Notes under the pieces: model-generated
Database searches by the model: none
The model's input: only the letters and a program-made list of their open reading frames with translations
Told to the model about the DNA's origin: nothing
Part shown: one piece after another, positions 31,606-49,774 of the stretch
How the letters are laid out: each line of letters opens with the position of its first letter
Position numbering within the stretch: position 1 is the stretch's first letter
Translations under genes and position numbers: made by a program
Assembly (NCBI GenBank): GCA_041394245.1
Contig: JAWKIR010000004.1
Coordinates: forward strand, 2,797 to 66,796
DNA length: 64,000 bases
Reading direction: 5' to 3'
Source: Acidimicrobiales bacterium
GTDB taxonomy: Bacteria > Actinomycetota > Acidimicrobiia > Acidimicrobiales > Aldehydirespiratoraceae

Positions 31606-32421
31606 TCAGAGTGTCATCGAACCCGATGGCGAGTTGATTCTGGCCCGCAAGGGAGCGATGTCGATCCTGAGGTTGCCGCGATCGGCGGCACTCTTGGGCT
31701 GAGACTCGGACAAGTGTGTGGCCAGCACTTCCCTGACTCCGGGATCGCCCCGCTCGATGTGATCGGCGATCGAGCGATGGAACGAGAGGGCGTCTCGGCG
31801 CTCGGCCATAGTCGGATGGTTGCCCGCGTGGACGACCTCGGACACCCAGCGATGCTCGTGTGCAGACCACAGGCGCTCGAGAGCTCCGGTGACGAGGCTC
31901 AACGCGCCGTTGCCACAGTTGGCCACGAGCGCCTCGTGGAACTCGCGTGACAGCGCAACCGCCGAGATCGCGTCGTCGAGCTGTTCCTCCATGCCATCGT
32001 TCAATCTCGTGAGCAGGGGAACGACGGCTTCCGCTCGGTCTTCGCGCAGGGCGCAGAACACTGCACACTCGGGTTCGAGGACTCGGATCGCATCGCCCAC
32101 CTCGCCGAGGGTGACACTGTCGGCGGTGAGGACGAGGCCCAAGGTGTAGGCCGCCGACGCACTGGTCGGGAGGTGGATGTCCGATCCGCCGACATTGCCG
32201 CGACGCACGGTGATGAGGCCCTCCGCCTCCAGAATCGCGAGGGCCTCGCGGATCGAAGCCTTTCCGACCCCGAAGCGGGCCCGCAGCTCGTCCTCCTTCG
32301 GGAGGTGGTCGCGCAACGAGCGGTCGAGGATGTCCTCGCGGATGGCGTCGGCGACCAGCTCAGAGGTCTTCATCGGTCGTACGCTGCGTTGTTCGGCCGC
32401 CGTCGACGGTTCGGAATTCAT
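31606..32421 (-). CDS. GntR-family transcriptional regulator, FadR/FCD subfamily
   Basis: Winged-HTH LPKEDELRARFGVGKASIREALAILEAEGLITVRRG plus an all-helical C-terminal FCD-like domain. Confidence 0.85.
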   Translation of the reverse strand: MNSEPSTAAEQRSVRPMKTSELVADAIREDILDRSLRDHLPKEDELRARFGVGKASIREALAILEAEGLITVRRGNVGGSDIHLPTSASAAYTLGLVLTADSVTLGEVGDAIRVLEPECAVFCALREDRAEAVVPLLTRLNDGMEEQLDDAISAVALSREFHEALVANCGNGALSLVTGALERLWSAHEHRWVSEVVHAGNHPTMAERRDALSFHRSIADHIERGDPGVREVLATHLSESQPKSAADRGNLRIDIAPLRARINSPSGSMTL

Positions 32422-32478: not shown

Positions 32479-32496
32479 ATCATTCGTACCATATGC
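32479..32496. promoter_or_regulatory. AT-rich box copy 1: ATCAT-tcgt-ACCAT-atgc
   Basis: 58 nt upstream of the GntR start codon. Same architecture as the other four boxes. Confidence 0.5.
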
Positions 32497-32772
32497 ACGT
32501 CGCGTCCTGACGGCCCGATCGTTGCTCGGCGCCGACGCGCCGAGGCGCATTCTCCGGTTCCGGGTGGTAGCGGTTGCTGCAAGGGCCAGGCGGCAAGGGT
32601 GCCAAGCGAGACCCGACCCGGTCCCTGCCGGTGCGCCCGACGGGTCCGAAGCCATGTCGGAGACACGGCGAGATGTGGCAAGGGACGCTGCGACGGACTC
32701 GGTCGATGCGATGAGGGGATCATCATCGGAGTCATGCTCGAGGGCATGAGTTGCGCTCCAGTCGACAGGCAT

Positions 32773-32795
32773 ATCATCAGTATGATACGAATCAT
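32773..32795. promoter_or_regulatory. AT-rich box copy 2: ATCAT-cagt-ATGAT-acga-ATCAT
   Basis: Three half-sites spaced 9 nt apart, about 50 nt upstream of the SBP gene ATG. Confidence 0.6.
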
Positions 32796-32845
32796 ACGCC
32801 CACCGCACTGGTACGGGCCGTAGATCATCTCGTGAGGGGAAGTTG

Positions 32846-34513
32846 ATGAGGAACGTCCGATACTGGGTGTGCCTGTTGTTGGCGCTGATGCTGATTGCCG
32901 CATCGTGTGGTGACGACGACTCGGGCACCGCCGACGACATCGGCGGTGACAGTGGTGACAGCGGTGGCTCCGGCGACGCTGAAGACAGTGGGGACTCCGG
33001 CGACGCCGGTGACGCGACCGAGTGCACGGCAGAGAACGTCGGCGGTGATTTGACCTTCGGAACTTTCGCCCCGACGGCGGGTCTCGATCCGGTCCAGATC
33101 ACGGGCGGCGGCACGTCGGGCGAGATCGAGAGCGTGGCGGTGTTCGACACGCTCGTGCGCTACGACCAGGCGTTGAACGACTTCGTGCCCCACATGGCCG
33201 AGTCGGTCGAACCCAACGACGACTACTCCGAGTGGACGGTTGTGCTCCGTCCAGGTATCTCCTTCTCGAACGGCGATGCTCTCGACGCCACCGCGGTGAA
33301 GGCGAGTATCGAGCGACACACCGCCGAAGACAGCACCTCTCGGCTTCGCGGTCTCGTCGCCGGCAACGTGGTGGCCATCGAGATCGTCGACGATCTCACC
33401 CTCTCGTTCGAGCTCGCGGAGTCCTGGCCGAAGTTCCCGTACCTGCTGAGCCGCCCGCCCGGAATGATCACGAATGAAGCCGTCGTTGCCGATGTCGGCG
33501 CCGAGGCATTCCAGCTCGATCCGGCCGGCGGTGGTGCGGGTCCGTACACCGTCGCTCGTTTCGTGCCGAACGAGGAACTCGTTCTCGAGGCCCGGGCCGA
33601 TTACTGGGGTGGCCCGGTGTGCATCGAAACGCTTCGTTTCATCTGGGTGCCCGGGGGGCAGGGAACCTGGGAGGCTTTCCAGTCCGGTGAGATCCAGGCC
33701 GGGTTCCTTCGGGAGCCGGCCGCGAACGCCGACGCGATCGATGCCGGTGTCGACGTCTTCCGCTACCTCAAGAACGCAGGTGGCATCGTCGTTGCGAACA
33801 ACGGTGCGAGAGGTTCGGACACGCCGACGTCGGACGTTCGGCTCCGCCGAGCGCTCCAGTTGGCGATCGATCCGGTGCTGTTCGACGATCGCGTGAATGA
33901 TGGTGAGAGCCTCCCGACATCCGCGGTCGTCCACCCCGACAGCATCTTGTCGACGGGAGCCGAAGGCTTGCCCTACGATCCCGACGCTGCTGCGGCGCTG
34001 GTCGAGGAAGTGAAGGCCGAGGGCGAGTGGGACGGTTCCATCCGTCTGTACTGCCACAACGCTCCGAGTCGTGCCGACTGGCCAATCGCCATGGAGGCGC
34101 AGCTCGAAGCGGTCGGCTTCGACGTCGAGGTGAAGAACGACTGGGACATCCACTCGATGATCAAGGCGGTGCTCATCGATGGTGACTTCGACCTGGCGTG
34201 CTGGGGTTTCAACATCGAAGAGGAGATTCCCTACAACGCCATGCAGCTGAATTTCACGACGGACAATCCCTCGAACTTCATCGGCTACTCGAATGCCGAG
34301 ATGGATCAGGCGATCGCCGATCTGAAGGCTGCGGACTCGCTCGAAGCGGAACAGGCAGCGATCGCGGACATCCAGGAGGTCTGGAACGAGACCGTGCCCA
34401 GCCCGATCTACGAGGCGCTCGAGGAGATGATCATTGCCGACGATTCGGTCCGGGGTCTTCTCAGCGGTTCTGCAGCCAGCGTGGTGTTCAGCGACGCGTA
34501 CCTCGTCGGCTGA
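32846..34513 (+). CDS. ABC transporter substrate-binding lipoprotein, family 5 (peptide/nickel/opine type)
   Basis: Signal peptide plus LIAASC lipobox, then an acidic GDS-rich linker. Family-5 SBP length and pattern. ATG 32846 (the track starts at TTG 32843). Confidence 0.85.
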   Translation: MRNVRYWVCLLLALMLIAASCGDDDSGTADDIGGDSGDSGGSGDAEDSGDSGDAGDATECTAENVGGDLTFGTFAPTAGLDPVQITGGGTSGEIESVAVFDTLVRYDQALNDFVPHMAESVEPNDDYSEWTVVLRPGISFSNGDALDATAVKASIERHTAEDSTSRLRGLVAGNVVAIEIVDDLTLSFELAESWPKFPYLLSRPPGMITNEAVVADVGAEAFQLDPAGGGAGPYTVARFVPNEELVLEARADYWGGPVCIETLRFIWVPGGQGTWEAFQSGEIQAGFLREPAANADAIDAGVDVFRYLKNAGGIVVANNGARGSDTPTSDVRLRRALQLAIDPVLFDDRVNDGESLPTSAVVHPDSILSTGAEGLPYDPDAAAALVEEVKAEGEWDGSIRLYCHNAPSRADWPIAMEAQLEAVGFDVEVKNDWDIHSMIKAVLIDGDFDLACWGFNIEEEIPYNAMQLNFTTDNPSNFIGYSNAEMDQAIADLKAADSLEAEQAAIADIQEVWNETVPSPIYEALEEMIIADDSVRGLLSGSAASVVFSDAYLVG

Positions 34514-34556
34514 GACGGGGCGTCGGGCGATGTGCGCTGAGGTGCTCACGCCGAAC

Positions 34557-34589
34557 GGTCGGAGGACCCCTCGTGGGGGTCCTCCGACC
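34557..34589 (+). terminator. 14-bp perfect stem-loop between the SBP and permease genes (possible partial terminator or mRNA-stabilising hairpin)
   Basis: GGTCGGAGGACCCC-tcgtg-GGGGTCCTCCGACC. There is no T-tract. Confidence 0.4.
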
Positions 34590-34597
34590 GGAGCGCC

Positions 34598-35575
34598 ATG
34601 ACTGCGGGGCGGGTACGAGTATCGCTGGGCCGGGTCGCATCCCAGCTTTTGCGGTTGGTGGTCGTGTTGCTGATCGTTTCGATCGGCACGTTCGGGTTGG
34701 TCGAGTTGATCCCGGGCGATCCGGCGCAGAACTTTCTGGGGGAGACGTCGACGCCTGAGGAGTATGTGCGGATCCGGGGTGAGCTCGGGTTGGATCGGCC
34801 GGTGGTCACCCGTTATGTCGATTGGTTGGGTTCGGTGCTGACGGGTGATTTCGGCAAGACGCTTTCCCAGCCGGTGCAGCCGGTGAGTGATGTGATCACG
34901 GCGGCGTTGCCGGTCAGTTTGCAGTTGGCGGCGATGGCGATGGCGATCGCGTTGTTGATCTCGATTCCGGCGGCGATGTTGTCGGCGCAGAGGCCCGGTT
35001 CTCGGCTTGATCGGGTGATCGGGGTGGTCACGTTCAGTGCGGTGTCGATTCCGAGCTTTCTGGCGGCGTTTTTGTTGATTCTTTTCTTCGTGCGGACGTG
35101 GTCGTTCTTTCCTCGTGTCACGTGGGTTCGGCTCAGTGCGGACCCGCTCGACAATCTGCATCATGCGTTCCTTCCGGCGTTGTCGATGGCGATCGTGGAG
35201 ATCGCGGTGTTCACGCGGCTCCTACGGAGCGATCTGATCTCGTCGTTGCAGGAGAGCTATGTCCTCGCGGCGCGGGCGCGCGGCATGGGGAAGTGGGAGA
35301 TCATGTTCAAAGAGGTTCTGCGGCCGTCGTCGTTCTCGCTGGTGACGCTGGCGGGTGTGAGCCTCGGCCGTCTGATCGGCAGCGCAGTGATCGTGGAGAC
35401 GATCTTCGGCCTGCCGGGCCTCGGCCGGGCGATCGTGGGTGGTGCCGGGCAACGTAATTACACCCTGGTGCAGGGTGGGGTCCTGGTTCTGGCGTTCATC
35501 TATGTGCTGGTCAATGCTGCGGTCGATGTCGGCTACACGCGACTCGATCCCCGTCTACGGAGGCGTGCGACATGA
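34598..35575 (+). CDS. ABC transporter permease (DppB/OppB-like)
   Basis: N-terminal LIPGDPA motif and the EAA-loop region typical of the BPD_transp_1 family. Confidence 0.9.
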   Translation: MTAGRVRVSLGRVASQLLRLVVVLLIVSIGTFGLVELIPGDPAQNFLGETSTPEEYVRIRGELGLDRPVVTRYVDWLGSVLTGDFGKTLSQPVQPVSDVITAALPVSLQLAAMAMAIALLISIPAAMLSAQRPGSRLDRVIGVVTFSAVSIPSFLAAFLLILFFVRTWSFFPRVTWVRLSADPLDNLHHAFLPALSMAIVEIAVFTRLLRSDLISSLQESYVLAARARGMGKWEIMFKEVLRPSSFSLVTLAGVSLGRLIGSAVIVETIFGLPGLGRAIVGGAGQRNYTLVQGGVLVLAFIYVLVNAAVDVGYTRLDPRLRRRAT

Positions 35576-36639
35576 CCGACACCATGCCCGAGCCGACACT
35601 GGCCGACAACGCAGCCACCGGTGAGGACGAAGCAACGGCGTCCAGAACCCAGCTGGTCGGCGCCGGGCTCTTCGTGCTCGGTCTGGTGGTCGTGTGGGTC
35701 GGTCTCGATCTGATGTCGGGATTGTCGGCGTGGCCCCGGTCGATCGTGTCGGTGGTCGGGGTGACGGCGTTGTATCAGGGGTTCGATCAGTTTGTCCGGC
35801 TGCGCTACCCGAGTGTGGAGCCGGGCCTGGTCTTGGCGGTTGGCTGGCTCGTTCTCGTCGTGTTGGTGGCCGTTTTCGCTGGTGTTCTGCCGTTGGGTGA
35901 GCATCAGAACGCGTCGGCGACGCTTCGGGTGCCGTCGTATGAACGCCCGGACCTGTTCAGTTCGCACCCGCTCGGGACGAATCAGCAGGGTCTCGACATG
36001 CTGGGCCGTCTTGTGCACGGGGCGCGGGTGTCGCTGGTGGTCGGGATCGGCGCGGTCGCGGTCGGCATGTTCATCGGTGGCATGGTCGGCCTGATCGCCG
36101 GTTTCTACCGGCGCGGTGTCGACACGATCGTCGGCATCATCACCGACGCGTTGTTGGCGTTCCCGCCGCTGGTCATGCTGGTGGCGTTGGCGTCGGTGCT
36201 CGACCGGAACCTGCGCAACACGGTCATCGGTCTCGCAATTCTCGCGGTGCCGACCAACATCAGGCTCGCGCGGGCCAACACGATGCGGTTCACCGAGCTC
36301 GAATTCGTCCAGGCCGCGCGGGGCATGGGGGCCAAGAACCGACGCATCATCCTGCGCGAGCTGCTGCCCAACATCGCGTTGCCGATGCTGTCCTACGCGT
36401 TCATCATCGTCGCAGTGTTGATCGTCGCCGAAGCATCGATCAGCTTTCTCGGTCTCGGTATCCAGCAGCCCAAGCCGACCTGGGGCAACATGATCGCCGA
36501 AGGCGACGGCGGCGTCTTCGAAGACCACCCCCACATCGTTCTCGTGCCCGGCCTCACGATGTTCCTCACCGTGTTCGCGTTCAACCGGGTCGGGGAGTCC
36601 GCCCGCAACAGCCTCGGAGCCAGCGAGCTCAGCCTGTAA
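35572..36639 (+). CDS. ABC transporter permease (DppC/OppC-like)
   Basis: ATGA overlap with the upstream permease. LGTNQQGLDMLGRLVHGARVSL pattern. Confidence 0.9.
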   Translation: MTDTMPEPTLADNAATGEDEATASRTQLVGAGLFVLGLVVVWVGLDLMSGLSAWPRSIVSVVGVTALYQGFDQFVRLRYPSVEPGLVLAVGWLVLVVLVAVFAGVLPLGEHQNASATLRVPSYERPDLFSSHPLGTNQQGLDMLGRLVHGARVSLVVGIGAVAVGMFIGGMVGLIAGFYRRGVDTIVGIITDALLAFPPLVMLVALASVLDRNLRNTVIGLAILAVPTNIRLARANTMRFTELEFVQAARGMGAKNRRIILRELLPNIALPMLSYAFIIVAVLIVAEASISFLGLGIQQPKPTWGNMIAEGDGGVFEDHPHIVLVPGLTMFLTVFAFNRVGESARNSLGASELSL

Positions 36640-37654
36640 CCGAACCCGCTCCGCCGACCGCCACCGGAACCTCGGCCGGGTGATGGCACGCCACGAAACG
36701 GCCCCCGCCGAGCGCCCTGATCTCGGGCTCCTCACGGGCGCACAGATCGCTCGCTCGGTCGCAACGCGTGCGGAAGCGACAACCCGACGGCGGGTCGAGC
36801 GGGGACGGCGGCTCCCCGACGATCGCAGTGTCCGGCAACAGCCGGGTCGGATCGGGTTGCGGGATCGAGTCGAGCAACACCCTCGTGTACGGATGCGCCG
36901 GCGACTCGTAGAGCGCCTCGGAATCGGCGATCTCACAGATTTTGCCCAGATACATCACGATGATCCGGTCACTCACGTTCTTGACCACCGCGAGATCATG
37001 CGAGATGAACAGCATCGTCAGCCCGTAGCGGGCCTTCATGTCCTGCAGCAGATTCAGGATCTGAGCCTGCACCGAGACATCGAGCGCCGACACCGGCTCA
37101 TCACACACCAGCACCGCCGGGTCGAGCATCAACGCCCGGGCGATGTTGATCCGCTGGCACTGACCACCGGAGAACTCGCCCGGCATGCGATCACCCACCA
37201 CATCGGGATCGAGACCCACGTCGAGCAGGATCTTGTCGATCCGCTCCTCGGTGGAACGGGCCGGATCGGCACCCCAGATATCGATCGCCTCGGCAACGAT
37301 GTCGCGCACCTTGCGGCGCGGATTCAGCGCCGCGATCGCGTCCTGGAAGATCATCTGGAGCCGGGTCCGGTGGCGACGCATCTCCTCGCCATGCAACGTC
37401 GTCAGTTCCTGCCCCTCCAGCTTCACCGACCCACTCGTCGCCGGCTGCAACTGCACCACCGCACGACCAGTGGTCGACTTCCCACAACCCGACTCACCAA
37501 CGAGCCCGAGCGTCTCACCGCGAAGAACGTCGAAGCTGACCCCCGACACCGCGTGGACCTTCTGGCCACCGGCGGCCGGATACTCCACGACCAGATCCTC
37601 GACCGAGAGGACGACATCGCCATCGCGAAGATGCGCCGTACCCGTACCCGCCAT
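36629..37654 (-). CDS. ABC transporter ATP-binding protein (DppF/OppF-like)
   Basis: Walker A GESGCGKST, signature FSGGQCQR, Walker B LLVCDEP. C-terminal oligopeptide-type extension with CRFRTRC. Confidence 0.9.
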   Translation of the reverse strand: MAGTGTAHLRDGDVVLSVEDLVVEYPAAGGQKVHAVSGVSFDVLRGETLGLVGESGCGKSTTGRAVVQLQPATSGSVKLEGQELTTLHGEEMRRHRTRLQMIFQDAIAALNPRRKVRDIVAEAIDIWGADPARSTEERIDKILLDVGLDPDVVGDRMPGEFSGGQCQRINIARALMLDPAVLVCDEPVSALDVSVQAQILNLLQDMKARYGLTMLFISHDLAVVKNVSDRIIVMYLGKICEIADSEALYESPAHPYTRVLLDSIPQPDPTRLLPDTAIVGEPPSPLDPPSGCRFRTRCDRASDLCAREEPEIRALGGGRFVACHHPAEVPVAVGGAGSVTG

Positions 37655-38724
37655 CAGACCGGAACCTCCACGTCCACACGCAACCCCGCAGCGGTCACCC
37701 CCGCACGACGATTGATCTCCAACGCCTCTTCACCCGCCTCGGTACCGATCGGGAAGTGACACCGATGCCAATGATCTCCATCGACCGCAACCGGCGCCGG
37801 TTCCGTCTCGAGACACTCAGGCTGCGCAAGACGACACCGCGGCGCATACCGACACCCCGCCGGCGGCGCCGCCAGATCCGGTGGCCGTCCACCAATCGCC
37901 TGCAACCGTTTGCCCGGCGGATCCTCGATCCTCGGGATCGACCTCATCAGATCCACCGTGTACGGGTGCCGGGTCTCCGCGAACAACGCACCAGTCGGCG
38001 CCGACTCCACCACCCGCCCCGCATACATCACCAAAATCCGATCCGTCCGCCCGGCGACGACACCGAGATCATGCGTGATCAAAATCACCGACATGTGATG
38101 ACTCTGCTGCAACGACTCCAGCAGATCGAGAATCTGCTTCTGAACCGTCACATCCAACGCAGTCGTCGGCTCATCCGCAATCAACAACGCCGGATCACAA
38201 CTCAACGCAATCGCAATCATCACCCGCTGACGCATCCCACCCGACAACTCATGGGGATACTGACGAAGCCGCTTGGTCGGCTCAGGAATCCCGACCTGCC
38301 CCAACAACTCCACCGCCCGCGCCGTCGCATCCGCACGACTCCCCCCGAGATGACGTCGGATGTTCTCGACCAACACCCGCCCGATCCGGCGAACCGGATT
38401 CAACGACGTCATCGGATCCTGGAACACCATCGAGATCTGATCACCCCAGTAATGCTTGCGCTCCGACGAAGTGATCGCCGAGAGGTCCACGCCATCGAAC
38501 ACGATCTGCTGCCCGGACCCGGTCACCGCCGAGGACGGCAACAAATCCATCAACGAACGAACCAACACCGACTTCCCCGAACCCGACTCACCCACGATCC
38601 CGATCGTCTCCGCCCGCCGCAACGAGAACGAAACATCATCCACCGCCACCAACGGCCCACGAGGCGTCGAAAACGTCGTCCGCAGCGACCGCACGTCCAA
38701 CAGCACGTCGTTCTCAGCCGCCAT
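37654..38724 (-). CDS. ABC transporter ATP-binding protein (DppD/OppD-like)
   Basis: Walker A GESGSGKS, signature LSGGMRQR, Walker B LLIADEPTTALD. Start at MAAENDVL (ATG 38724). Confidence 0.9.
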   Translation of the reverse strand: MAAENDVLLDVRSLRTTFSTPRGPLVAVDDVSFSLRRAETIGIVGESGSGKSVLVRSLMDLLPSSAVTGSGQQIVFDGVDLSAITSSERKHYWGDQISMVFQDPMTSLNPVRRIGRVLVENIRRHLGGSRADATARAVELLGQVGIPEPTKRLRQYPHELSGGMRQRVMIAIALSCDPALLIADEPTTALDVTVQKQILDLLESLQQSHHMSVILITHDLGVVAGRTDRILVMYAGRVVESAPTGALFAETRHPYTVDLMRSIPRIEDPPGKRLQAIGGRPPDLAAPPAGCRYAPRCRLAQPECLETEPAPVAVDGDHWHRCHFPIGTEAGEEALEINRRAGVTAAGLRVDVEVPV

Positions 38725-38745
38725 CAATCGCCCCCTGTGTAAGTA

Positions 38746-38763
38746 TCGTAAAATATGTATAAT
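38746..38763. promoter_or_regulatory. AT-rich box copy 3 (minus orientation): ATTAT-acat-ATTTT-acga; overlaps a TATAAT hexamer
   Basis: Most degenerate copy. Plus-strand TATAAT at 38758-38763, about 98 nt upstream of GTG 38861. Confidence 0.35.
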
Positions 38764-38860
38764 AGTCGGGTTGGCGTCAGCGCACCCCTTCCGTCGGGAT
38801 TGCGAACGCGGCGCCTTGCTGTCGTATGGTCCGCCGTCCGTCTGACTCGAGGGGGTCATC

Positions 38861-40510
38861 GTGCTGGAACCGCAAATGAGCTGGGATGAGGCGGTCGCGA
38901 TCCTGACGGCGCCTGGTGCCGACTTCGAAACGGTCGAGGAGATGGTGCTGGGCGAGTCGATGCTCGTCTTCAAGAACCGGGCTCGCACGTTGCCCGATCT
39001 CCTTCGCTCTACGGCGGAACGATTCGGCAACGCGGACTGTCACGTGTTCGACGGTGGCCCCCGCGCCACCTTCACCGATGTCGCGGATCGGGCTGCGTCG
39101 GTCGCCCTTGCGCTGTCCCGTGACCACGGCATCGGACCCGGCGACCGCGTCGCGATTCTCGCCGCGAACTGCATGGAGTGGATCGACGCCTTCTGGGCCG
39201 TCGTTTCGTTGGGCGGGATCGTCGTTGCCATGAATGGCTGGTGGACCGCCGAGGAAGTCGACTACGGCATGGCCCTCACCAGCCCGAAGCTGCTCGTGGT
39301 CGATCGGCCCCGTCTCGAACGCATGTCCGAGCCGCCGGATGTGCCGACCATCGTGATCGAGGACGACTTCGCTGATCTGCTTGGCACTGACGCCTCCGCC
39401 GGACTCCCCGAGGTCGAGATCGCCGAGGACGACCCGGCGGCGATCCTGTTCACGTCGGGTACCACCGCGCGGCCGAAGGGTGCCGTCACCTCTCACCGTT
39501 GTTTCGGCGCGTTCGTGTCGATGTCCCACGTCGGTGCGGCCATCAATGCGCTTCGATTCCCACCGACCGATCCTGCGCCGGCTCCAGCCGGGCTCGCGAC
39601 GAGCCCGCTGTTCCACGTGTCGGGGCTGCACACAAGTGCCATCACGGGCATGGCCAGCGGCGTCAAGTCCGTTTGGCCGGCGGGTCGTTTCGACGCCGAC
39701 AACATCATGCGGCTCACCGCCGAGGAGAAGATCTCCCATTGGGGAGGAGTCACAACCCACCTCTGGCGGCTCGTGCAGTCTCCCAACATGGCGAACTACG
39801 ATCTCTCCAGCGTCCGATCGGTCGGCGGTGGGGGGTCGGTGTGGTCGCCCGAGCTGCAGCGCACCATCAGACAGGCACTCCCGAACGCCTCCCACTCGGT
39901 CATGGTCGGGTACGGCCTCACCGAATCCGGTGGGCTCGCCTGCACCGCGCACGACGAGCTGCTTCGCCGTCATCCCGACTCCGTCGGGCGGCCGATTCCC
40001 ACGGTCGAGGTTGCGATCAAGGACCCGTCGGACGTCGACCTGCCGGAAGGGGAGGAGGGTGAGGTGTGCCTGCGGGGGCCGGGGATCATTCCCGGCTACT
40101 GGAACAACCCGGAGGCGACCCGACTCGCCCTGCGCCCGGGCCGGTGGCTTCGCACCGGCGACATCGGCCGGTTGGTCGATGGCGTCCTGTATCTCTCCGC
40201 GCGCAAGGGCGACATGATCATCCGCGGCGGCGAGAACATCTCCCCGGTGGAGATCGAGAACCGCCTGGATGAGCATCCGTTTGTCGTCGAAGCGGCAGTC
40301 ATCGGCGTCGAGCATCGTGAGCTGGGCCAGGAAGTGAAGGCCATCGTCGTGCATGCTCCGGGTGCTCCCGTCACGTCAGAGGAACTGTCGGCCTTCGTCG
40401 GCCAGGCGCTGTCGTACTACAAGGTGCCGAGCATCTGGGAGATCCGCACCGAGCCGTTGCCGCGCAACATCACCGGCAAGGTGCTCAAACGTGAGCTCCT
40501 CGAGGGCTAG
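38861..40510 (+). CDS. AMP-dependent acyl-CoA synthetase/ligase
   Basis: FTSGTTARPKG AMP-binding motif, GYGLTE, and a C-terminal GKVLK. Confidence 0.9.
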   Translation: MLEPQMSWDEAVAILTAPGADFETVEEMVLGESMLVFKNRARTLPDLLRSTAERFGNADCHVFDGGPRATFTDVADRAASVALALSRDHGIGPGDRVAILAANCMEWIDAFWAVVSLGGIVVAMNGWWTAEEVDYGMALTSPKLLVVDRPRLERMSEPPDVPTIVIEDDFADLLGTDASAGLPEVEIAEDDPAAILFTSGTTARPKGAVTSHRCFGAFVSMSHVGAAINALRFPPTDPAPAPAGLATSPLFHVSGLHTSAITGMASGVKSVWPAGRFDADNIMRLTAEEKISHWGGVTTHLWRLVQSPNMANYDLSSVRSVGGGGSVWSPELQRTIRQALPNASHSVMVGYGLTESGGLACTAHDELLRRHPDSVGRPIPTVEVAIKDPSDVDLPEGEEGEVCLRGPGIIPGYWNNPEATRLALRPGRWLRTGDIGRLVDGVLYLSARKGDMIIRGGENISPVEIENRLDEHPFVVEAAVIGVEHRELGQEVKAIVVHAPGAPVTSEELSAFVGQALSYYKVPSIWEIRTEPLPRNITGKVLKRELLEG

Positions 40511-40650
40511 GCATGTCCGGGCATGGCGATGCCGGCGCGCCAAAGGGGTGAGAGCTTCGTAGCGGGGTGAGCATGCCGGTTGCGCGCCGCCGCGCCTATT
40601 GGCGAGGCCCACTGAAAGGAGCGCGACACCGTTGCACCGCCCTGGGATCT

Positions 40651-40668
40651 ATCATTCGTATGATACGA
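40651..40668. promoter_or_regulatory. AT-rich box copy 4: ATCAT-tcgt-ATGAT-acga
   Basis: Best copy. Contains the perfect palindrome TCGTATGATACGA. 29 nt upstream of ATG 40697. Confidence 0.6.
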
Positions 40669-40696
40669 TTAATTCGTTCAGAAAGGACGACCCCCC

Positions 40697-41578
40697 ATGG
40701 CGAATCTCCAGTGGAAGATCGGTGATGTCACCGTGACGAAGATCGTGGCCCTCGAAACCGCGCTGCCGGAGGGCATGCTCGTCCCGGAGGCGACCACTGC
40801 GGCGCTCGAACCGTACCGTTCCTGGTTGGCCCCGAACTTCATGACGAGCGACAGCCAGCTGCGCGTGTCCTTCCATGCGCTCGTCGTCCAGACGCCCACC
40901 TGTCGAATCGTCGTCGACACCTGCGTCGGCGAGCACCGGATCCCGGGGATGGGAGGGCTCTTCGCCGGCGCCAAGAGCCTGCCTGACGCACTCGCCGAGA
41001 ACGACACACCTCGCGAGAGCATCGACTACGTGATGTGCACCCACCTTCATTTCGATCATGTGGGGTGGAACACCATGCAGGTCGACGGTCGCTGGGTACC
41101 CACCTTCGAGAACGCTCGCTACATTTTCGCCCGGGAGGAATGGGAACACTGGAGTTCGGTCGAGGAGAACCATTTCGCGATCAACTTCAATGATGCGGTC
41201 CGTCCCGTAGTCGATGCCGGTCTCACCGAACTCGTCGACACCGACCATCAGCTCTGCGATGAGGTCCGGCTGGTCCCGACTCACGGCCATTCTCCGGGCC
41301 ATGTGTCGGTGCTGATCGAGTCGGGCGGCCAGCAGGCACTGATCACCGGGGATTCGGCCCACCACCCGGTCCAGTTCGCAGAGCCCGATTGGGGCGTGCC
41401 CGCAGACAGCGACACCGTGGCTGCCGCAGCGACCCGCCGCTCCATGCTTGCCGAGTACGGAGACCGCGACGTGCTCGTCATCGGTACCCACTTCGCCGGC
41501 TGTACGGCGGGTCATCTTGTCCAGACCGACGAGGGCTGGCAGTTCCGTCCCCACGATGGGGGAACGGACGCAGCGTGA
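40697..41578 (+). CDS. MBL-fold metallo-hydrolase
   Basis: HLHFDHVGW (HxHxDH) motif plus downstream His and Asp ligands (PTHGHSPGH). Confidence 0.85.
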   Translation: MANLQWKIGDVTVTKIVALETALPEGMLVPEATTAALEPYRSWLAPNFMTSDSQLRVSFHALVVQTPTCRIVVDTCVGEHRIPGMGGLFAGAKSLPDALAENDTPRESIDYVMCTHLHFDHVGWNTMQVDGRWVPTFENARYIFAREEWEHWSSVEENHFAINFNDAVRPVVDAGLTELVDTDHQLCDEVRLVPTHGHSPGHVSVLIESGGQQALITGDSAHHPVQFAEPDWGVPADSDTVAAAATRRSMLAEYGDRDVLVIGTHFAGCTAGHLVQTDEGWQFRPHDGGTDAA

Positions 41579-42663
41579 ACGAAGACATCCGCGCGATGGT
41601 GCAAAGCGCGCCGGAAGTGCTCTCGCTCGAGTCCTTCCGGAGGCCGAAGACGGGTGACAACGACGGCTTGGTGCGCATCGAGGTCTGTGGCATCTGTGGC
41701 ACCGATGTCGAGACGCTCTCCGGTTCAGGGCCCAAGCTGACGTACCCGCTGATTCCGGGCCACGAGCCAGTCGGCATCATCGAAGAGATCGGAGAGCGTG
41801 CGGCGCAGCGTTGGGATCTCGTCCCCGGTGATCGCGTCGTTCTCCAGTCGGACTTCGGGTGTGGGCGATGTCGTCGCTGTATGGACGGCCATTTCTGCGC
41901 CATCGCCCCCGGCAACTACGGCTTCATGCCCACGGCTGTCGAGCCGTCGCTCTGGGGGGGATTCTCCGAAATGCTGTACCTCGCCCCCGGCGCGGTTCCG
42001 CACAAGATCTCGAAGGACCTCGATCCCCGTATCGCTGCTCTCTACAACCCGTTGGGTGCGGGGTTCGCGTGGGCGATCGAAGCCCCCGGACTTCAGTTCG
42101 GTGACACCATCGCGATTCTGGGGCCGGGGCAGCGCGGCCTGGCTTGTGTCATCGCCGCGAAAGCGGCCGGCGCTGATCGCATCTTCGTCACCGGGCTCGG
42201 GTCGAAGGACCAGATGAAGATGTCGTTGGCGGTCGAGTTCGGCGCCGACGTCGTCATCGACGTCGAAGAGGAAGCCGCACTCGAGCGCGTCCTCGAGGAG
42301 ACGGACGGGCGCGGCGTCGATGTCGTGGTCGATACCACCCCGTACGCCACGCAGCCGGTGGTCGACGCCATCCGTATGGCGTGCCTCGGCGGCACGATCG
42401 TCCTCGCCGGCATGAAGGGTGCGGACACGGCCATTCCGGCCTTTCCGTCCGATGAGGTGCTGCTGCGCTATCAGACGATCAAGGGCGTCCGTTCGGTCGA
42501 CTACAAGAGCTTCCAGCGTGCCGTCAAGCTGATCGAGTCGGGCACTGTTCCGGTGGAGAAGCTCCACACGCACCATTTCCCGCTCGAAGCGGCATGGGAG
42601 GCAGTTCACGCGCTGGCGGGAGAATCGGACCGTCCTGCGGTCTCCGTCACCGTCGAGCCATGA
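41575..42663 (+). CDS. zinc-dependent medium-chain alcohol dehydrogenase/reductase
   Basis: GICGTD and GHEPVG catalytic-Zn motifs, CGRCRRC structural-Zn motif, GPGQRG Rossmann motif. GTG 41575 overlaps the upstream stop (GTGA); an ATG a few codons downstream is possible. Confidence 0.85.
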   Translation: MNEDIRAMVQSAPEVLSLESFRRPKTGDNDGLVRIEVCGICGTDVETLSGSGPKLTYPLIPGHEPVGIIEEIGERAAQRWDLVPGDRVVLQSDFGCGRCRRCMDGHFCAIAPGNYGFMPTAVEPSLWGGFSEMLYLAPGAVPHKISKDLDPRIAALYNPLGAGFAWAIEAPGLQFGDTIAILGPGQRGLACVIAAKAAGADRIFVTGLGSKDQMKMSLAVEFGADVVIDVEEEAALERVLEETDGRGVDVVVDTTPYATQPVVDAIRMACLGGTIVLAGMKGADTAIPAFPSDEVLLRYQTIKGVRSVDYKSFQRAVKLIESGTVPVEKLHTHHFPLEAAWEAVHALAGESDRPAVSVTVEP

Positions 42664-42728
42664 CTCAACTCGGCGGCGCAGCGAGACCGCGCCGCGTTCG
42701 TCGACCAACTACAGAAGGATTGCCAACC

Positions 42729-43178
42729 ATGGAGCATGAGCATTTCGCCACTGCGACCTACGTCACCTACTCGCTCGAGCGCACGCTCTCATCGGAACCC
42801 GACGCGGTCTGGGAGGTGGTCAGGGACTTCGGCAATGTCGGCTGGATTCCGGGCGCGACCAAGGCGGTGTCCTATGACGGCGGGCCGGGGGTCGGACTTT
42901 CCCGCATTCTGCACAACCGGGACCAGGGTCCGATTCGGGAGACCCTGATTGCGTTGAGCGAGGCGGATCGCACGATCACCTACACGGTCAGCCGCAACAT
43001 CCCGTTTCCGGTGAACTACTACTGCGCCACCATGCGGGTTGGCGAGGACGGCGGCAAGGCTCATGTCACGTGGTCCTGCGTGTACGAACCCGAGGACGCC
43101 ACTCCCGAGCAGGCAGCCGCGGCGATCGAGGCGCTCTACAACCTCATGCTCGACTGGATTGACGACTTCGCCGCCTGA
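42729..43178 (+). CDS. SRPBCC-superfamily (START/Bet v1-like) protein
   Basis: 149 aa. PDAVWEVVRDFGNVGWIPG..., typical of polyketide-cyclase/dehydrase-like ligand-binding folds. Confidence 0.7.
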   Translation: MEHEHFATATYVTYSLERTLSSEPDAVWEVVRDFGNVGWIPGATKAVSYDGGPGVGLSRILHNRDQGPIRETLIALSEADRTITYTVSRNIPFPVNYYCATMRVGEDGGKAHVTWSCVYEPEDATPEQAAAAIEALYNLMLDWIDDFAA

Positions 43179-43184
43179 TCGCGG

Positions 43185-44744
43185 TCAACCCGCGTCGGGA
43201 CGGTGCCCATGGTCGCCGAAGAGTTCGGTGACGCGGGCGCGGAGTTCGGCCTTCGCGATCTTTCCACCCGAGGAGATCGGCAGCGCATTGAGTACGGCGA
43301 TGTGTTCCGGCCACCATTCCTTCGAGACACCCCGCCGGTCCAGGTGCTCGGTGATGTCGCCGAGTTCGAGTGAGTGGCCGTGGCGTGGCTGGATGCAGAT
43401 GCCGACCCGTTCGCCGAGTGCGGTGTCGGGGACTGCGATTGCTGCGGCGAAGGCGACGTCGGGGTGGGTGAGTACCTCTTCCTCGACTGCGGGGGCGCTG
43501 ATGTTCTTGCCGCCGCGGACGATGAAGTCGGCGGATCGGCCGATGACTGTGAGCCATCCGTCGTCGTCGATCTCGACGATGTCGCCCATGAGCATCCAGC
43601 CGTCGTCGGTGAACAGCTCGTCGTTGGCGCTGTCGTCGTCGAAGTAGCCCGGGCTGGTCGCCCGGCCGCGGCAGGCGGGTCGGCCGATTCCCTGGTCGCC
43701 GGGGATGCGATGGCGCTGCTCGTCGTAGAGGCGGACCTGCATTCCGGGAATGCATCGACCCCCGGTTCGGATGCGCTTCTCGAGCGGATCGCTGACACGC
43801 GTTCCGGAGAGAAGGCCCGTCTCGTTCGAGCCGTAGAAGTTGAGGACGGCGCACCCGGTGGCTTCTTCGAAGGCGCGCGCTTTGGCGATCGGGAGCCGCT
43901 CGCCACCGGTGAACAGCACCCGCAGCGAGGACAGGTCGAGACCTTCCGCCTGATCGAGAATCATCGCGAACTGAGAGCTGACGGCGCACAACACGGTGAC
44001 CCGGTGGCGTTCGATCAGCTCGGCGGCGGCGCGGGAATCGAACTTCCGCTGCACGACGCAGGGCACGCCAAGGATCGTGGGGCTGTAGTGGCTGGTCCAG
44101 AGTCCGAAGCCGAACGGGGCCGGCACGACACTCATCCACACCTCGTCGCGTTGAAGCTCGCCGAATTCCGCGGCCAGCTCATGGAAGTAGAACCATCGGT
44201 CCTGCGTTTGCATGACGCACTTCGGGAGGCCGGTCGTCCCGGATGTCGAGTTGAGCATGCAGAGCTCCGAGGGCCCCACCGGTTGGAGGGGTTTGGCGGT
44301 GGGACCCTCGTCGAGCCCGGGGGATCCGTCACCGTCGTGAACGGTGATGAGATTCGCAATTCCGAGCCGCCCGCACAGCGATCGAGCGGCGCCGAGCCTG
44401 GTGCTTTCCGGCATGATCGCGATCGTCGGGGACGTCTTGGCGACCAGGCTGGCCAGTTCGCGCTCTCCCGCGCGCCATCCCACTCCCACGGAGACCACGC
44501 CGGCGCGTTCGCAACCGAGCAGGGCCGCGTGGACGGCGCCGCCGTCGGGAAGGAGGACCACGGCCCGTTGGCCGTACCGCACCCGCATACCGGCGAGGCG
44601 CTCGGCAATCGCGTCGCCCAAGGCGTCGTACCCGGACCAGGTGAGGGCGGTGTCGCCCCAGCGGTAGGCATCGTCCGTAGGCCGTCCGGCGGCGAGCGAC
44701 CGGACCTTGTGGTCGAGTGTCGAGGGCACCATTGAATCAGACAT
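43185..44744 (-). CDS. AMP-dependent acyl-CoA synthetase/ligase
   Basis: NSTSGTTGLPK AMP-binding motif, YGSNETG, and a C-terminal GGKIAK. Confidence 0.9.
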   Translation of the reverse strand: MSDSMVPSTLDHKVRSLAAGRPTDDAYRWGDTALTWSGYDALGDAIAERLAGMRVRYGQRAVVLLPDGGAVHAALLGCERAGVVSVGVGWRAGERELASLVAKTSPTIAIMPESTRLGAARSLCGRLGIANLITVHDGDGSPGLDEGPTAKPLQPVGPSELCMLNSTSGTTGLPKCVMQTQDRWFYFHELAAEFGELQRDEVWMSVVPAPFGFGLWTSHYSPTILGVPCVVQRKFDSRAAAELIERHRVTVLCAVSSQFAMILDQAEGLDLSSLRVLFTGGERLPIAKARAFEEATGCAVLNFYGSNETGLLSGTRVSDPLEKRIRTGGRCIPGMQVRLYDEQRHRIPGDQGIGRPACRGRATSPGYFDDDSANDELFTDDGWMLMGDIVEIDDDGWLTVIGRSADFIVRGGKNISAPAVEEEVLTHPDVAFAAAIAVPDTALGERVGICIQPRHGHSLELGDITEHLDRRGVSKEWWPEHIAVLNALPISSGGKIAKAELRARVTELFGDHGHRPDAG

Positions 44745-44758
44745 AAGATACGAATGAT
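44741..44758. promoter_or_regulatory. AT-rich box copy 5 (minus orientation): ATCAT-tcgt-ATCTT-atgt
   Basis: Overlaps the ATG (44742-44744) of the second acyl-CoA ligase, in the 99-nt divergent region shared with the aldolase-like gene. Confidence 0.5.
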
Positions 44759-44843
44759 AAACCTAGCTGACGGCGTTGATCGCGTCGAAAGTGGTGTAAT
44801 ATCCGAATGATTCTGATGTAGAGACCTTGGAAAGGTGTCGAGC

Positions 44844-45590
44844 ATGGCACTCCAGCAAGATGCGTTGGCCGTACCGCCGCTGGGGGTCACGTTGCGCCCC
44901 GAGCAGGAACTCGCCTGCGCGTTTCGCGCGCTCGCCGCGGATGGGTTCAGCGAGAACCTCGCCGGCCACATCACCTGGGTCGATCGCACCGATGGGTCCA
45001 TGCTCGTCAACCCCTGGGGTCTCTGGTGGGGAGAAGTCTCGGCGTCGGACATCTGTCGCATCAGTGCGGGCGGCGCGGTCCTTCAGGGTCATTGGGATGT
45101 CACGCCGGCGATCCACATCCACACCGAGCTTCATCAGGCGCGCCCCGACGCGGCGGTAGTCGTCCACAACCATCCCTACTGGTCGACCGTCCTCGCCGCA
45201 CTCGGTGAGCTTCCTGAGATCTTCCACCAGACGGGTTGCCTCTTCCACGAGGAGATGGTCTTCGTCGACGAGTACGACGGCACCATCGAGACCCCGGAGA
45301 TGGGTTCGGCCCTCGCGGCGGTCATCGGCGACGCGAACATCGCGCTGCTCGCCAACCACGGCGTCATCGCGATGGGCGCCACTCTCGCCGAAGCGGTGTA
45401 CCGAGCCGGGACGTTCGATCGGCAGTGCCGGTTGGCCTACGACGTCCTCCGGGCGGGCGGAAGCCCTCGCTCGGTCCCGGAGGCGGCCCGGCGTCCGTTG
45501 CAGAGGACCTTGGTCGAGCGGGCCGCAGACGTCTACTGGGCCGGCGTCGTGCGTCGCGTGGTCGGGTCAGAGCCGAGAGTGTTGGCGTGA
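44844..45590 (+). CDS. class II aldolase/adducin-family protein
   Basis: HIHTELH...VVHNHP...LLANHGV metal-ligand pattern. ATG 44844 after GGAAAGG (the track starts at GTG 44835). Confidence 0.8.
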   Translation: MALQQDALAVPPLGVTLRPEQELACAFRALAADGFSENLAGHITWVDRTDGSMLVNPWGLWWGEVSASDICRISAGGAVLQGHWDVTPAIHIHTELHQARPDAAVVVHNHPYWSTVLAALGELPEIFHQTGCLFHEEMVFVDEYDGTIETPEMGSALAAVIGDANIALLANHGVIAMGATLAEAVYRAGTFDRQCRLAYDVLRAGGSPRSVPEAARRPLQRTLVERAADVYWAGVVRRVVGSEPRVLA

Positions 45591-45626
45591 CCTCGCGCCG
45601 CCGAAACGACGGAATGAGGACTGAGC

Positions 45627-46901
45627 ATGGCAAGTCTTGAGGAACTCCAGAAGAACACTGCGTTCACTGTTGCCGGCAGGGAGGGCAGCAGGGCGGTCAC
45701 CTTCCTTCCCGAGCCACCGAGGGCGAGACGTCGCTTTCCGGTCATCTCCGTCGACGATCACATCGTCGAACCCCCGCACACATTCGAGGGCCGCTTTCCG
45801 GCGGCGCTTGCGGACCGCGCGCCCCGCGTCGTCGAATCCGACGACGGCGGGCAGGCGTGGGTCTACGACGGTCAGGTGATGCCCAACGTCGGATTCAACG
45901 CCGTCGTCGGTCGTCCGGTGTCGGAATACAGCTTCGAACCGGCACGATTCGATCAGATGCGGCGCGGCGCCTGGGACATCGACCACCGCGTCGCGGACAT
46001 GGACCTCGCCGGGATCTGGGCATCGATGTGCTTTCCGTCCTTTTTGCCCGGGTTCGCCGGTCAGCGTCTTCAGCTGACGGTCGACGACCCTGCGCTGGCG
46101 TTGGCATCGGTGCGCGCGTGGAACGACTGGTGCATCGAGGAATGGGCCGGAACTCATCCAGGCCGGATCATCCCGATGCAGCTCCCCTACCTCCTCGACG
46201 TCGAGATCGCCGCCGAGGAAGTGCGGCGCAACGCCGATCGGGGGTTCAAGGCGATGACGTTCTCCGAAGCACCCGACAAACTGGGTCTCCCCAGCCTCCA
46301 CAGCGGTCACTGGGATCCGCTGATGGCCGCCTGCGAAGAAACGGACACGGTCGTCTCGTTGCACATCGGATCGTCGGGAGAATCGCCGTCCACCGCGGCG
46401 GACGCTCCGCCAGATGTCGTCGGCGTGCTGTTCTTCGGCCACGCGATGTTCTCCGCCACGGACTGGCTCTACTCGCAGATCCCCGTCCGGTTTCCCGGTC
46501 TCAAACTGTGCATGTCCGAGGGGGGCATCGGGTGGGTCGCCGGTCTCCTCGACCGACTCGACCACGTGCTCAAGTACCAGGAGATGTACGGCACCTGGAA
46601 AAGCGACCTCACGCCTCGCGAGGTCATGCAGCGCAACTTCTGGTTCTGTGCAATCGATGATCCCGCAGGCTTCGAAACCCGCCACCACATCGGGGTCGAT
46701 CACATTCTGATCGAGTCCGATTACCCACACGCCGACTCGAACTGGCCCGACACGCAGGCACACTTCCAGCGTCAGTTCCGAGACATCCCCGACGACGAAG
46801 TCGCGCGGATGGCTTGGCAGAACGCGGCAGACCTGTTCCGCCTCGACGTCCCGGCCCCTGTGATCGCCGACCCCAACGCGCTCTGGCCCAGCGAGCGCTG
46901 A
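45627..46901 (+). CDS. amidohydrolase-2 family protein (ACMSD/decarboxylase-hydratase type)
   Basis: ISVDDHIVEP N-terminal metal motif, SLHIGSS, and C-terminal ESDYPHAD. Confidence 0.8.
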   Translation: MASLEELQKNTAFTVAGREGSRAVTFLPEPPRARRRFPVISVDDHIVEPPHTFEGRFPAALADRAPRVVESDDGGQAWVYDGQVMPNVGFNAVVGRPVSEYSFEPARFDQMRRGAWDIDHRVADMDLAGIWASMCFPSFLPGFAGQRLQLTVDDPALALASVRAWNDWCIEEWAGTHPGRIIPMQLPYLLDVEIAAEEVRRNADRGFKAMTFSEAPDKLGLPSLHSGHWDPLMAACEETDTVVSLHIGSSGESPSTAADAPPDVVGVLFFGHAMFSATDWLYSQIPVRFPGLKLCMSEGGIGWVAGLLDRLDHVLKYQEMYGTWKSDLTPREVMQRNFWFCAIDDPAGFETRHHIGVDHILIESDYPHADSNWPDTQAHFQRQFRDIPDDEVARMAWQNAADLFRLDVPAPVIADPNALWPSER

Positions 46902-47074: not shown

Positions 47075-47711
47075 TGGTGACCCTTCCGGCCGGCTGGGCG
47101 GCAGCATCGTTCTCCCAGACGGCCTGCACCTCGGGATCGGCCGCGACCTCGGCGTTGACCGGCAGATACGAGCCCTTGGGGTGGATGATCTTCTGCTGGC
47201 CGGCCTCGGAGCGGTCGGGGAACGGCGCGACGTCGACGTCGATGGTCAGGTCGGTCGTGCCGACGGCCTCCGGGTCGAGTCAGGCGTCGGCGATCAGGTC
47301 CGACAGGTTCGACGTCCCGCCGAGCACGCCGGCGATCGTGGTCGACGCCGTGGAGGTCTCGAAGAGCATCGACGCGGTGCCCGGGTTCGCCAGGGCAAGG
47401 AACTGGCCGACCTCGCCGGGCACGTTGCTGAACGGGAGGATGAGTCCCTCGTCGTTCATCTCCTTCAGGAGTTCGTAGATCTCGAGCGCCTCGGGACCGT
47501 TGAAGATGGCTTCGGTGGCGTTGCCGGCCCGGCCGTTGTCGGCGTTGATCAGCGCGACGTCGGCACCGGTGAGCCAGGTGTCGACGAATAAGCCCTGCAT
47601 CAGGAACGACAGGGGGGTCGTGGCGACGCCCGCTGCCTTGATGGCCCGGCCGGCGTCGCGCACCTCGGCGAGGGTCTGCGGTGGCGAATCGGGATCGAGG
47701 CCGGCCTCCTC

Positions 47712-47759
47712 GAAGTGGGTGCGGTTGTAGTAGAGGAAGTGGGTGCGGTTGTAGTAGAG
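47712..47759. repeat. perfect 24-bp tandem duplication inside the SBP pseudogene
   Basis: gaagtgggtgcggttgtagtagag x2. Encodes LYYNRTHF twice. Confidence 0.95.
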
Positions 47760-47852
47760 CACCGGCGTCGAGATGAAGGTGGCGGACGGATAGAGCGTCC
47801 CCTCGATGCTGAACGACGAGCGGATTAACTCGTCGATCCCGGTCAGGGGCAA

Positions 47853-49561: not shown

Positions 49562-49774
49562 GTCGACACCTCCTGCTGACAGGCTACGGAGCCTGCGGTT
49601 CTTCCGGATGCACGCGTGGTCGCGCTCCACAGATTCCATCGGCGCACAGTGAGGCTGCCTTGACCCGAATGCGCGTGACCTCGGTCGCACCCTGGCTGGC
49701 GGTCGTCGGTCACCCGACGTAGACGTGACCTACGGCCCTGCCCGCTGTCTCCCCGGTTCTGCCATCATCACGAC

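Follow-up and report, generated by a model that had tools for sequence, protein, structure and literature searches.

Which protein, if any, reads the short AT-rich boxes that recur between the genes of a 13-gene cluster in a metagenome-assembled genome (MAG) of an Acidimicrobiales bacterium? We addressed this question in a 64,000-nt stretch of that genome (hereafter the window), with gene families assigned by Pfam. A sequence-only reading of the same DNA had reported five boxes and proposed that they form the operators of a single autoregulated GntR repressor encoded in the cluster at 31606-32421. We find support for this proposal, with refinements, and consider it likely that the boxes are the operators of the cluster's own GntR/FCD repressor. 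The motif is enriched in the cluster, has dyad symmetry, is placed in every intergenic region of the cluster, is conserved in related genomes and co-occurs with the regulator gene. The GntR/FCD protein is also the sole regulator of the cluster: among the open reading frames (ORFs) checked around it, no second regulator was found in or beside the cluster.

All five reported boxes (sites 1 to 5, numbered from left to right, Table 1) read exactly as they had been given, on the same strands and at the same coordinates. Their distances to the start codons were also given correctly, including the 29 nt between site 4 and its gene. The boxes had been placed in promoters or 5' regions, and we indeed find them in all four intergenic regions of the cluster, that upstream of the regulator itself included, and nowhere else in the intergenic DNA of the window. 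We compared the 18-mer of site 4 (ATCATTCGTATGATACGA, at 40651) with every position on both strands of the 64 kb. With up to five mismatches there are 12 matches, all of which fall in six places, namely the five reported boxes and a further one at 44794 on the minus strand (site 6); the first match outside the cluster appears at six mismatches. A first-order Markov null predicts 1.2 places with up to five mismatches, and shuffling the DNA within 30-nt blocks, which keeps local composition, gives an expectation of 0.58. With three or fewer mismatches, three matches were observed against 0.01 expected.

Other measures of the same motif give a similar picture. The 11-mer CRWATSATWYG, with at most one mismatch, occurs six times in the 994 nt of intergenic DNA of the cluster (perfectly at 32788 and 40657, and with one mismatch at 32485, 32779, 44742 and 44804), compared with 0.11 expected from composition-preserving shuffles. 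The other 63 kb hold only two matches, each with one mismatch and within an ORF. A weight matrix built solely from the sites of other genomes (the external matrix) finds its seven best window matches in sites 4, 2, 1 and 5, and leave-one-out scores compared with local shuffles give P = 2e-4 for each of these four sites. An independent repeat finder recovered a 27-nt family at 32772, 40650 and 44735. A mobile repeat was rejected as the source of these copies because the similarity among them stops after 27 nt. A similar motif density in unrelated AT-rich regions, which the sequence-only reading had named as grounds for giving up its proposal, was not seen. AT-rich patches, defined as having A or T at 12 or more of 18 bases, number nine in the window, all of them within the lower-GC island that holds the cluster, and five of the nine come within five mismatches of the 18-mer. 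In related actinobacterial loci of high GC content (1.5 Mb) there are 746 such patches. Nine of them reach this threshold and five of these are orthologous boxes; the background among unrelated patches is thus 4 of 741 (0.5%).

The sites can be written in one common register, [ATSAT][TCGT][ATSAT][ACGA][ATSAT][TCGT], in which AT-S-AT and W-CG-W blocks alternate every 9 nt. Perfect 13-nt dyads occur in site 4 (TCGTAT-G-ATACGA) and in the related locus L003 (ACGAAT-C-ATTCGT), and both fit CGWAT-S-ATWCG. Judging from these sequences, the recognition unit would be CGWAT-S-ATWCG, an AT-rich dyad that spans 11-13 nt and has one CG step per arm. Neighbouring dyads lie 9 nt apart and overlap through a common CG step, producing sites of 18-27 nt, with 27-nt arrays at three promoters. 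The symmetry had originally been described as an ATCAT/ATGAT inverted repeat. The two-fold symmetry is real, but these AT-only words are its less informative part: the informative part is the 13-nt dyad TCGTAT-S-ATACGA or ACGAAT-S-ATTCGT, and the 18-mer consists of one dyad plus a flanking ATSAT box. With regard to the dyad axis, window-type sites and the HutC-type loci described below favour TCGTAT-S-ATACGA, and mycobacterial orthologues conserve the neighbouring dyad.

Operators of the GntR family have the consensus NyGTNxACNy (Suvorova et al., 2015, PMC4494728), and TCGT-N5-ACGA fits it in the order of GT and AC. At a distance of 7-12 nt from their centre, many FadR, HutC and YtrA palindromes also have additional, weaker half-site boxes, which have been proposed to recruit extra subunits (Suvorova et al., 2015). 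The ATSAT boxes of the window, 9 nt from the dyad centre, match these flanking boxes, with the difference that the flanking units here are as well conserved as the core.

The individual sites vary in strength. Site 4, which has a perfect 13-nt dyad (TCGTATGATACGA) at 40656, is the strongest. Site 2 combines the 18-mer ATCATCAGTATGATACGA at 32773 with an extra ATCAT at 32791 and has 11-mer matches at 32770, 32779 and 32788; it is the reference copy of family D5 in the output of the repeat finder. In site 5 the 18-mer is ATCATTCGTATCTTATGT, at 44741 on the minus strand. Site 1 differs from the 18-mer at four positions and scores 23.1 with the external matrix (local-shuffle P = 2e-4). Site 6 has an 18-mer match with five mismatches (ATCATTCGGATATTACAC) and an 11-mer match with one, a local-shuffle P of 0.0014 and an external-matrix score of about 10, level with one coding match; its centre, like the dyad centre of site 4, is 35 nt upstream of an ATG, here that of the aldolase gene at 44844. 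Site 3 is present as originally reported and is marginal as a box: it has five mismatches to the 18-mer and a local-shuffle P of 0.004, and its external-matrix score of 9.9 is level with that of one match in a coding region. Since site 3 is marginal, control of the units for the ATPases and ligase 1, on either side of it, is the least secure part of the proposed regulon. A further weak box, CGTATGGTCCG (38823-38833), is located 38 nt 5' of the ligase-1 start and resembles the version of site 1 found in locus L001 (CGTATGGTACG). It could be the true operator of ligase 1. The closest homologue of ligase 1 is 66% identical, and its contig has only 37 nt upstream of the gene.

The protein encoded at 31606-32421 is a member of the FadR/FCD subfamily of the GntR family and has both domains that define this group. 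These are a GntR winged helix-turn-helix (PF00392, 54 bits, cutoff 27, residues 20-76) and a C-terminal, all-helical FCD effector/oligomerisation domain (PF07729, 43.2 bits, cutoff 24.3, residues 110-237). We read it as 271 aa; NCBI annotates a 255-aa version that begins at 32373, and a homologue with 87% identity retains the long N-terminus. The annotation of an Acidimicrobiales MAG includes a protein with 100% identity to it. The closest PDB relatives of the regulator are the FCD proteins 2DI3 and, second-best, NanR (6ON4). NanR also gives the top NCBIfam score (60.9 bits against a cutoff of 260 bits), and there are weak matches to LldR, GlcC, PdhR and UxuR. Because all NCBIfam scores are far below their cutoffs, the protein is the orthologue of no named regulator.

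Conservation of the boxes upstream of orthologous clusters, which had been suggested as a check, is borne out in four loci (L001, L003, L137 and L138). L001 encodes a regulator that is 87% identical to that of the window. In this locus site 2 is unchanged except for two spacer bases, site 1 retains the core TTCGTACCATA with a changed ATCAT box, and the 420-nt intergenic region is divergent in its middle part, with an 86-nt indel. L137 comes from the same sample as L001 and has the ligase-2/aldolase arrangement. Here a 25-nt block over site 5 is 100% identical and the adjacent intergenic DNA is scrambled, so that the block reads as a clean footprint in this alignment. The same alignment contains an in-frame 3-nt indel and, in L137, lacks the downstream ATG, in support of a ligase-2 start at 44744 and, therefore, of a site 5 that really covers the start. 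Of site 6, L137 retains the core CGAATGAT and L138 the entire box, preceded both times by a TAnnnT hexamer; the L138 regulator is 84% identical and divergent from the aldolase gene. In L003, where the regulator is 66% identical and divergent from the genes for the aldolase and the oxygenase, the divergent region contains ACGAATCATTCGTATGATACGC, and the locus has the perfect 13-nt dyad ACGAATCATTCGT. The boxes accompany the regulator through three different gene arrangements. A regulator with 64% identity (L004) is sited behind a TetR gene, and its contig holds no upstream DNA. Four loci with regulators that are 51-55% identical (L139:1110-1150, L142:1165-1200, L057:9090-9125 and L008:2845-2885) have in common a different conserved AT-rich element, TTGATT...AAGTTAG..TAGAT, located where the regulator and aldolase genes diverge. 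It apparently serves a sister group as operator or promoter.

Scanning genomes with only the GntR protein yielded no relative. We therefore seeded a second scan with an alignment of the oxygenase, which is far better conserved, and obtained 80 syntenic loci totalling 1.55 Mb. The set of regulator, ligase 2, aldolase and oxygenase recurs in Mycobacterium, Mycolicibacter, Dactylosporangium and Acidimicrobiia. The aldolase and oxygenase pair is the conserved core of the synteny, and ligase 2 is syntenic with GntR orthologues in many genomes. Perfect 11-mers number 35 in the 1.55 Mb, against about 2 expected from composition, and 34 of the 35 lie within 231 nt of a GntR orthologue. Counted by locus, regulator and motif occur together in 18 of the 80, the regulator only in 18, the motif only in one and neither in 43. 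The sole perfect box away from a GntR gene (L125:14168) is upstream of a gene for a small secreted protein or lipoprotein on a Mycobacterium contig. The winged-helix region, within which a stretch K-x-S-[IL]-R-E-A matches the recognition helix, is common to the regulators of the window and mycobacterial groups; the Dactylosporangium regulators differ in the winged-helix region, and the motif is absent there.

The loci in which a related palindrome flanks the GntR orthologue, 18 in number, are mycobacterial. Mycobacterial loci have CAAATCATTTGG upstream of the regulator, away from the -10 position, and CATATGATTTGG over the -10 of a TTGACG-N16-TATGAT promoter that belongs to a leaderless ligase/aldolase operon. 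In loci L090-L133 this leaderless promoter (TTGACG, 16 nt, TATGAT, 6 nt, start codon) is found about 80 nt downstream of the GntR orthologues. In nine Mycolicibacter loci, ATGATT[CT]GTG[GTC]CATACGA occurs just 5' of the ribosome-binding site of a divergent MBL gene, in the same orientation as site 4 of the window and at a similar position.

The regulator has the domain layout of PdhR, LldR, GlcC, DgoR and UxuR/ExuR, the FadR-subfamily FCD repressors of acid catabolism in Escherichia coli. FCD repressors are expected to have AT-rich palindromic operators, placed at the promoter of the regulator and at neighbouring operons for catabolism and transport, and to be released by the pathway acid or acyl-CoA (PMC4494728). 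The boxes described here differ from those of the E. coli repressors in their half-sites (TCGT/ACGA with 5 nt between GT and AC, rather than TKGT-N2-3-ACMA) and in the overlap of dyads in 9-nt phase into 27-nt arrays, and the target pathway is different. NanR of E. coli, also an FCD-type GntR protein, has a multi-unit operator as well, not a single palindrome, and binds cooperatively as several dimers. The units recognised by NanR are direct repeats, TGGTATAW (PMC4494728), whereas those of the window boxes alternate in orientation.

The motif is also found beside regulators of a second kind. The exact 17-mer ATCATTCGTATGATACG has 48 matches in metagenomes, 46 of which are on low- or mid-GC contigs without related genes, about the number expected by chance. 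The other two are on the high-GC contigs L014 (8890-8925) and L019 (945-985), inside a perfect 15-nt palindrome (TTCGTATGATACGAA). On each contig the box occupies a divergent promoter, with a GntR gene of the HutC/UTRA type on one side and a gene for a solute-binding protein (TctC-type / NMT1-type) on the other. It appears that a second GntR subfamily shares this operator. The two contigs count as one independent pointer to the GntR family, since their regulators are homologues of each other. The identical 17-mer is in these loci paired with a UTRA effector domain, not FCD. In BLASTP comparisons with the window regulator, the L019 protein aligns over the DNA-binding region only (about 33% identity), and the L014 protein gives no significant alignment.

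Could the boxes instead be operators of a regulator encoded elsewhere (a HutC-type GntR protein, a BxlR-like protein of the LacI type or a member of the Fur family), with the local GntR gene only one of its targets? Several observations speak for this, beginning with the two HutC-type loci. The only leads in the literature on the box sequences themselves were to Fur and BxlR. Fur has been crystallised on GCAAATCATTTGC (PMC4506495), which equals the mycobacterial box, and several enzymes encoded in the cluster are metal-dependent. BxlR, a LacI-type regulator of Streptomyces, binds CGAA-N3-TTCG; its listed site CGAATCATTCG is found in L003, and the pattern occurs in the site 2 unit CGAATCATACG at 32788. 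Because GntR, LacI and Fur-family proteins use nearly the same palindrome, the assignment of the regulator must rest on co-occurrence. In this respect the perfect boxes stand beside an FCD-type GntR gene in 34 of 35 cases, the motif occurs without the regulator in one locus only, and the boxes follow the GntR gene through all three gene arrangements. The ORFs checked in and next to the cluster included no gene of the LacI, Fur or HutC type, and the cluster has no glycoside-utilisation gene. We rejected a BxlR-type LacI operator for want of both a LacI-family and a glycoside-utilisation gene, even though some units contain CGAA-N3-TTCG. The 19-nt Fur box (GATAATGATAATCATTATC), with NATWAT units in 6-nt phase, was rejected as well, since the units here are in 9-nt phase with conserved CG steps, which the Fur box lacks, and have only the AATSATT core in common with it; nor does a Fur regulator agree with boxes that track the GntR gene and with the lack of a Fur-family gene among the ORFs checked around the cluster. 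Overall, control by a distant regulator seems improbable.

We consider it somewhat less probable still that the boxes need no specific regulator and are either shared core-promoter sequence or nucleoid-protein sites that silence a horizontally acquired island of lower GC content. With a GC content of 63-66%, the cluster forms an island in DNA of 70% GC beside an IS481 transposase, all AT-rich patches of the window are inside it, the boxes contain TAnnnT hexamers, and half of one mycobacterial box is a -10 element. For site 3 alone, which resembles a two-way -10 patch, this explanation is quite possible. For the boxes as a group it is opposed by their rarity among unrelated AT-rich patches and by the failure of local-composition shuffles to reproduce the box. 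The conserved dyad symmetry and G/C positions (the CG steps) are demanded neither by hexamers nor by AT-tract binding, and the mycobacterial box 5' of the regulator is not at a -10. A known cis-regulatory RNA is excluded as an explanation, because an Rfam search of 31-49 kb gave no match. Finally, chance similarity among a few AT-rich intergenic stretches, which sites 3 and 6 on their own might suggest given their weakness, is effectively refuted by the window statistics and the conservation in independent genomes.

Control by the local GntR/FCD repressor has to accommodate several points that weigh against it. Unrelated regulators (Fur and the LacI-type BxlR) bind similar short palindromes. 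The GT-to-AC distance of 5 in TCGT-ATGAT-ACGA is outside the 2-3 nt usual for the FadR subfamily (PMC4494728). The second register, ACGAAT-C-ATTCGT, contains no GT...AC at all, and a distance of 5 recurs in the HutC-type loci that share the box. Either of the two dyad registers, which are indistinguishable, may be the true axis. Site 3 is marginal and may be just a two-way -10 patch (TGTATAAT on the plus strand, TATTAT on the minus strand). Regulators with 51-56% identity (L005, L008, L057, L139 and L142) have other AT-rich boxes. The motif is therefore narrow in range, and specificity drifts within the family; a regulator with 47% identity (L067) likewise has a different AT-rich box, not the window motif. 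In mycobacteria, loci without GntR retain TATGAT and lose the ATTTGG half of the box, so that the left half of the ligase-2 box there is simply a -10 hexamer. Lastly, no sigma-70-type promoter was found when the four intergenic regions of the cluster were scanned by consensus. The positions of the boxes relative to the promoters of the window consequently rest on -10-like hexamers recognised by eye and on the clear mycobacterial promoters.

If the GntR/FCD repressor does act through these boxes, regulation may proceed as follows. Without inducer, one or two regulator dimers would occupy the dyads on or beside the -10 region and the transcription start. This would block RNA polymerase at the regulator's own promoter, at the transporter operon, at the operon for the MBL-fold hydrolase, alcohol dehydrogenase and SRPBCC protein, and at the divergent promoters of ligase 2 and of the aldolase and oxygenase genes. 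The ATPase and ligase-1 promoters would also be blocked, with less certainty. The acid substrate of the pathway, or its CoA thioester, would then bind the FCD domain and release the repressor. We infer binding by the 31606-32421 protein, repression rather than activation, the stoichiometry and the effector. A more speculative extension, which we put forward tentatively, is that the 27-nt arrays are a distinct operator design. They might allow at least two GntR dimers to bind in register across the -10 and start region, a solution that FCD- and HutC-type regulators might have reached independently. The box might then mark a conserved actinobacterial regulon for a catabolic route built around the DitZ-like oxygenase, the class II aldolase-family enzyme and the CoA ligases, and its inducer would name the substrate, possibly a terpenoid or steroid-like acid.

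The GC content is 63-66% from about 32 to 49 kb, compared with about 70% in the flanks. In the Pfam gene map the cluster comprises 13 genes in up to seven transcription units with four intergenic regions (Table 1), one gene fewer than the approximately 14 that the sequence-only reading had placed under the repressor. The genes of the ABC transporter are split between strands: those for the solute-binding protein (SBP) and the permeases are on the plus strand and the two for the ATPases on the minus strand, convergent and with an 11-nt overlap with the permease end. The ATPase genes therefore need their own promoter. In the N-terminus of the SBP (32909-33048) there are a direct repeat of 99 nt and a stretch with 9-nt periodicity that is rich in Gly, Asp and Ser; this part of the protein probably serves as a flexible lipoprotein linker. 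At the end of the lower-GC stretch, an IS481-family transposase gene (47853-48821, minus strand) adjoins a fragment of a family-1 solute-binding protein (47280-47852). The insertion element and the lower GC content suggest that the cluster was horizontally acquired and that the insertion broke a gene. Just outside the island, 49151-49690 encodes a cyclic-nucleotide-binding domain protein of 179 aa in which no DNA-binding domain was detected.

Table 1. Boxes and genes of the cluster, with coordinates in the 64,000-nt window.
Feature	Coordinates	Strand	Description
Site 1	32479..32496	+	ATCATTCGTACCATATGC; 58 nt 5' of the regulator ATG at 32421; candidate autoregulatory operator
Site 2	32772..32798	+	27-nt array TATCATCAGTATGATACGAATCATACG, three dyads in 9-nt phase; about 50 nt 5' of the SBP gene
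Site 3	38746..38763	-	ATTATACATATTTTACGA; divergent ATPase/ligase-1 region; weak candidate
Site 4	40650..40677	+	Array TATCATTCGTATGATACGATTAATTCGT; strongest site; dyad centre 35 nt 5' of the MBL ATG at 40697
Site 5	44735..44761	-	27-nt array, minus strand TTTATCATTCGTATCTTATGTCTGATT; overlaps the ligase-2 ATG at 44744; repeat families D5 and I11
Site 6 (new)	44794..44814	-	Box CGAATGATTCT directly after a -10-like TAATAT; adjoins the aldolase gene
GntR/FCD regulator gene	31606..32421	-	271 aa
Family-5 solute-binding protein (SBP) and two permeases, peptide/opine-type ABC transporter	32843..36639	+	Site 2 upstream; predicted target unit
Two ABC ATPases	36629..38727	-	Only weak site 3 upstream; possible target unit
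Acyl-CoA ligase 1	38861..40510	+	Weak upstream boxes (site 3 and CGTATGGTCCG at 38823); possible target
MBL-fold hydrolase, Zn-dependent alcohol dehydrogenase and SRPBCC protein	40697..43178	+	Site 4 upstream; predicted target unit
Acyl-CoA ligase 2	43185..44744	-	Site 5 over the start; predicted target
Class II aldolase-family protein and DitZ-like amidohydrolase-related dinuclear oxygenase	44844..46901	+	Sites 5 and 6 upstream; predicted target unit

Among the enzymes of the cluster, the protein assigned to 'Amidohydro_2' (45627-46901) contains two motifs, SVDDH (D-x-H) and DYPHAD (D-x-P-H-x-D), that mark the amidohydrolase-related dinuclear oxygenases. Among PDB entries it is closest to the diterpenoid hydroxylase DitZ (8UYR, E = 6e-77) and to PtmU3. 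By these motifs and relatives it is probably an oxygenase, not a hydrolase, and it has at least 561 relatives in reference genomes. Ligase 1 is closest to the steroid-24-oyl-CoA synthetase CasG (NCBIfam NF052580, 613 bits, below the cutoff of 750 bits). A paralogue with 59% identity is encoded elsewhere on the same 515-kb contig, which makes the island copy a diverged duplicate or an import.

The boxes would turn what was a list of genes into a predicted regulon, with 13 genes organised in at most seven transcription units, and they supply a concrete DNA probe. The system would be an ordinary kind of gene switch, for an uncharacterised pathway. Hundreds of actinobacterial genomes contain the core trio, composed of a CoA ligase, a class II aldolase-family protein and an amidohydrolase-related dinuclear oxygenase, and many of these genomes, environmental mycobacteria included, have a GntR orthologue next to it. 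That the predicted regulon includes a DitZ-like dinuclear oxygenase, widespread in Actinobacteria, adds modest extra interest. Together, repressor and operator would offer a practical route to the inducer, and hence to the substrate, of a widespread actinobacterial pathway.

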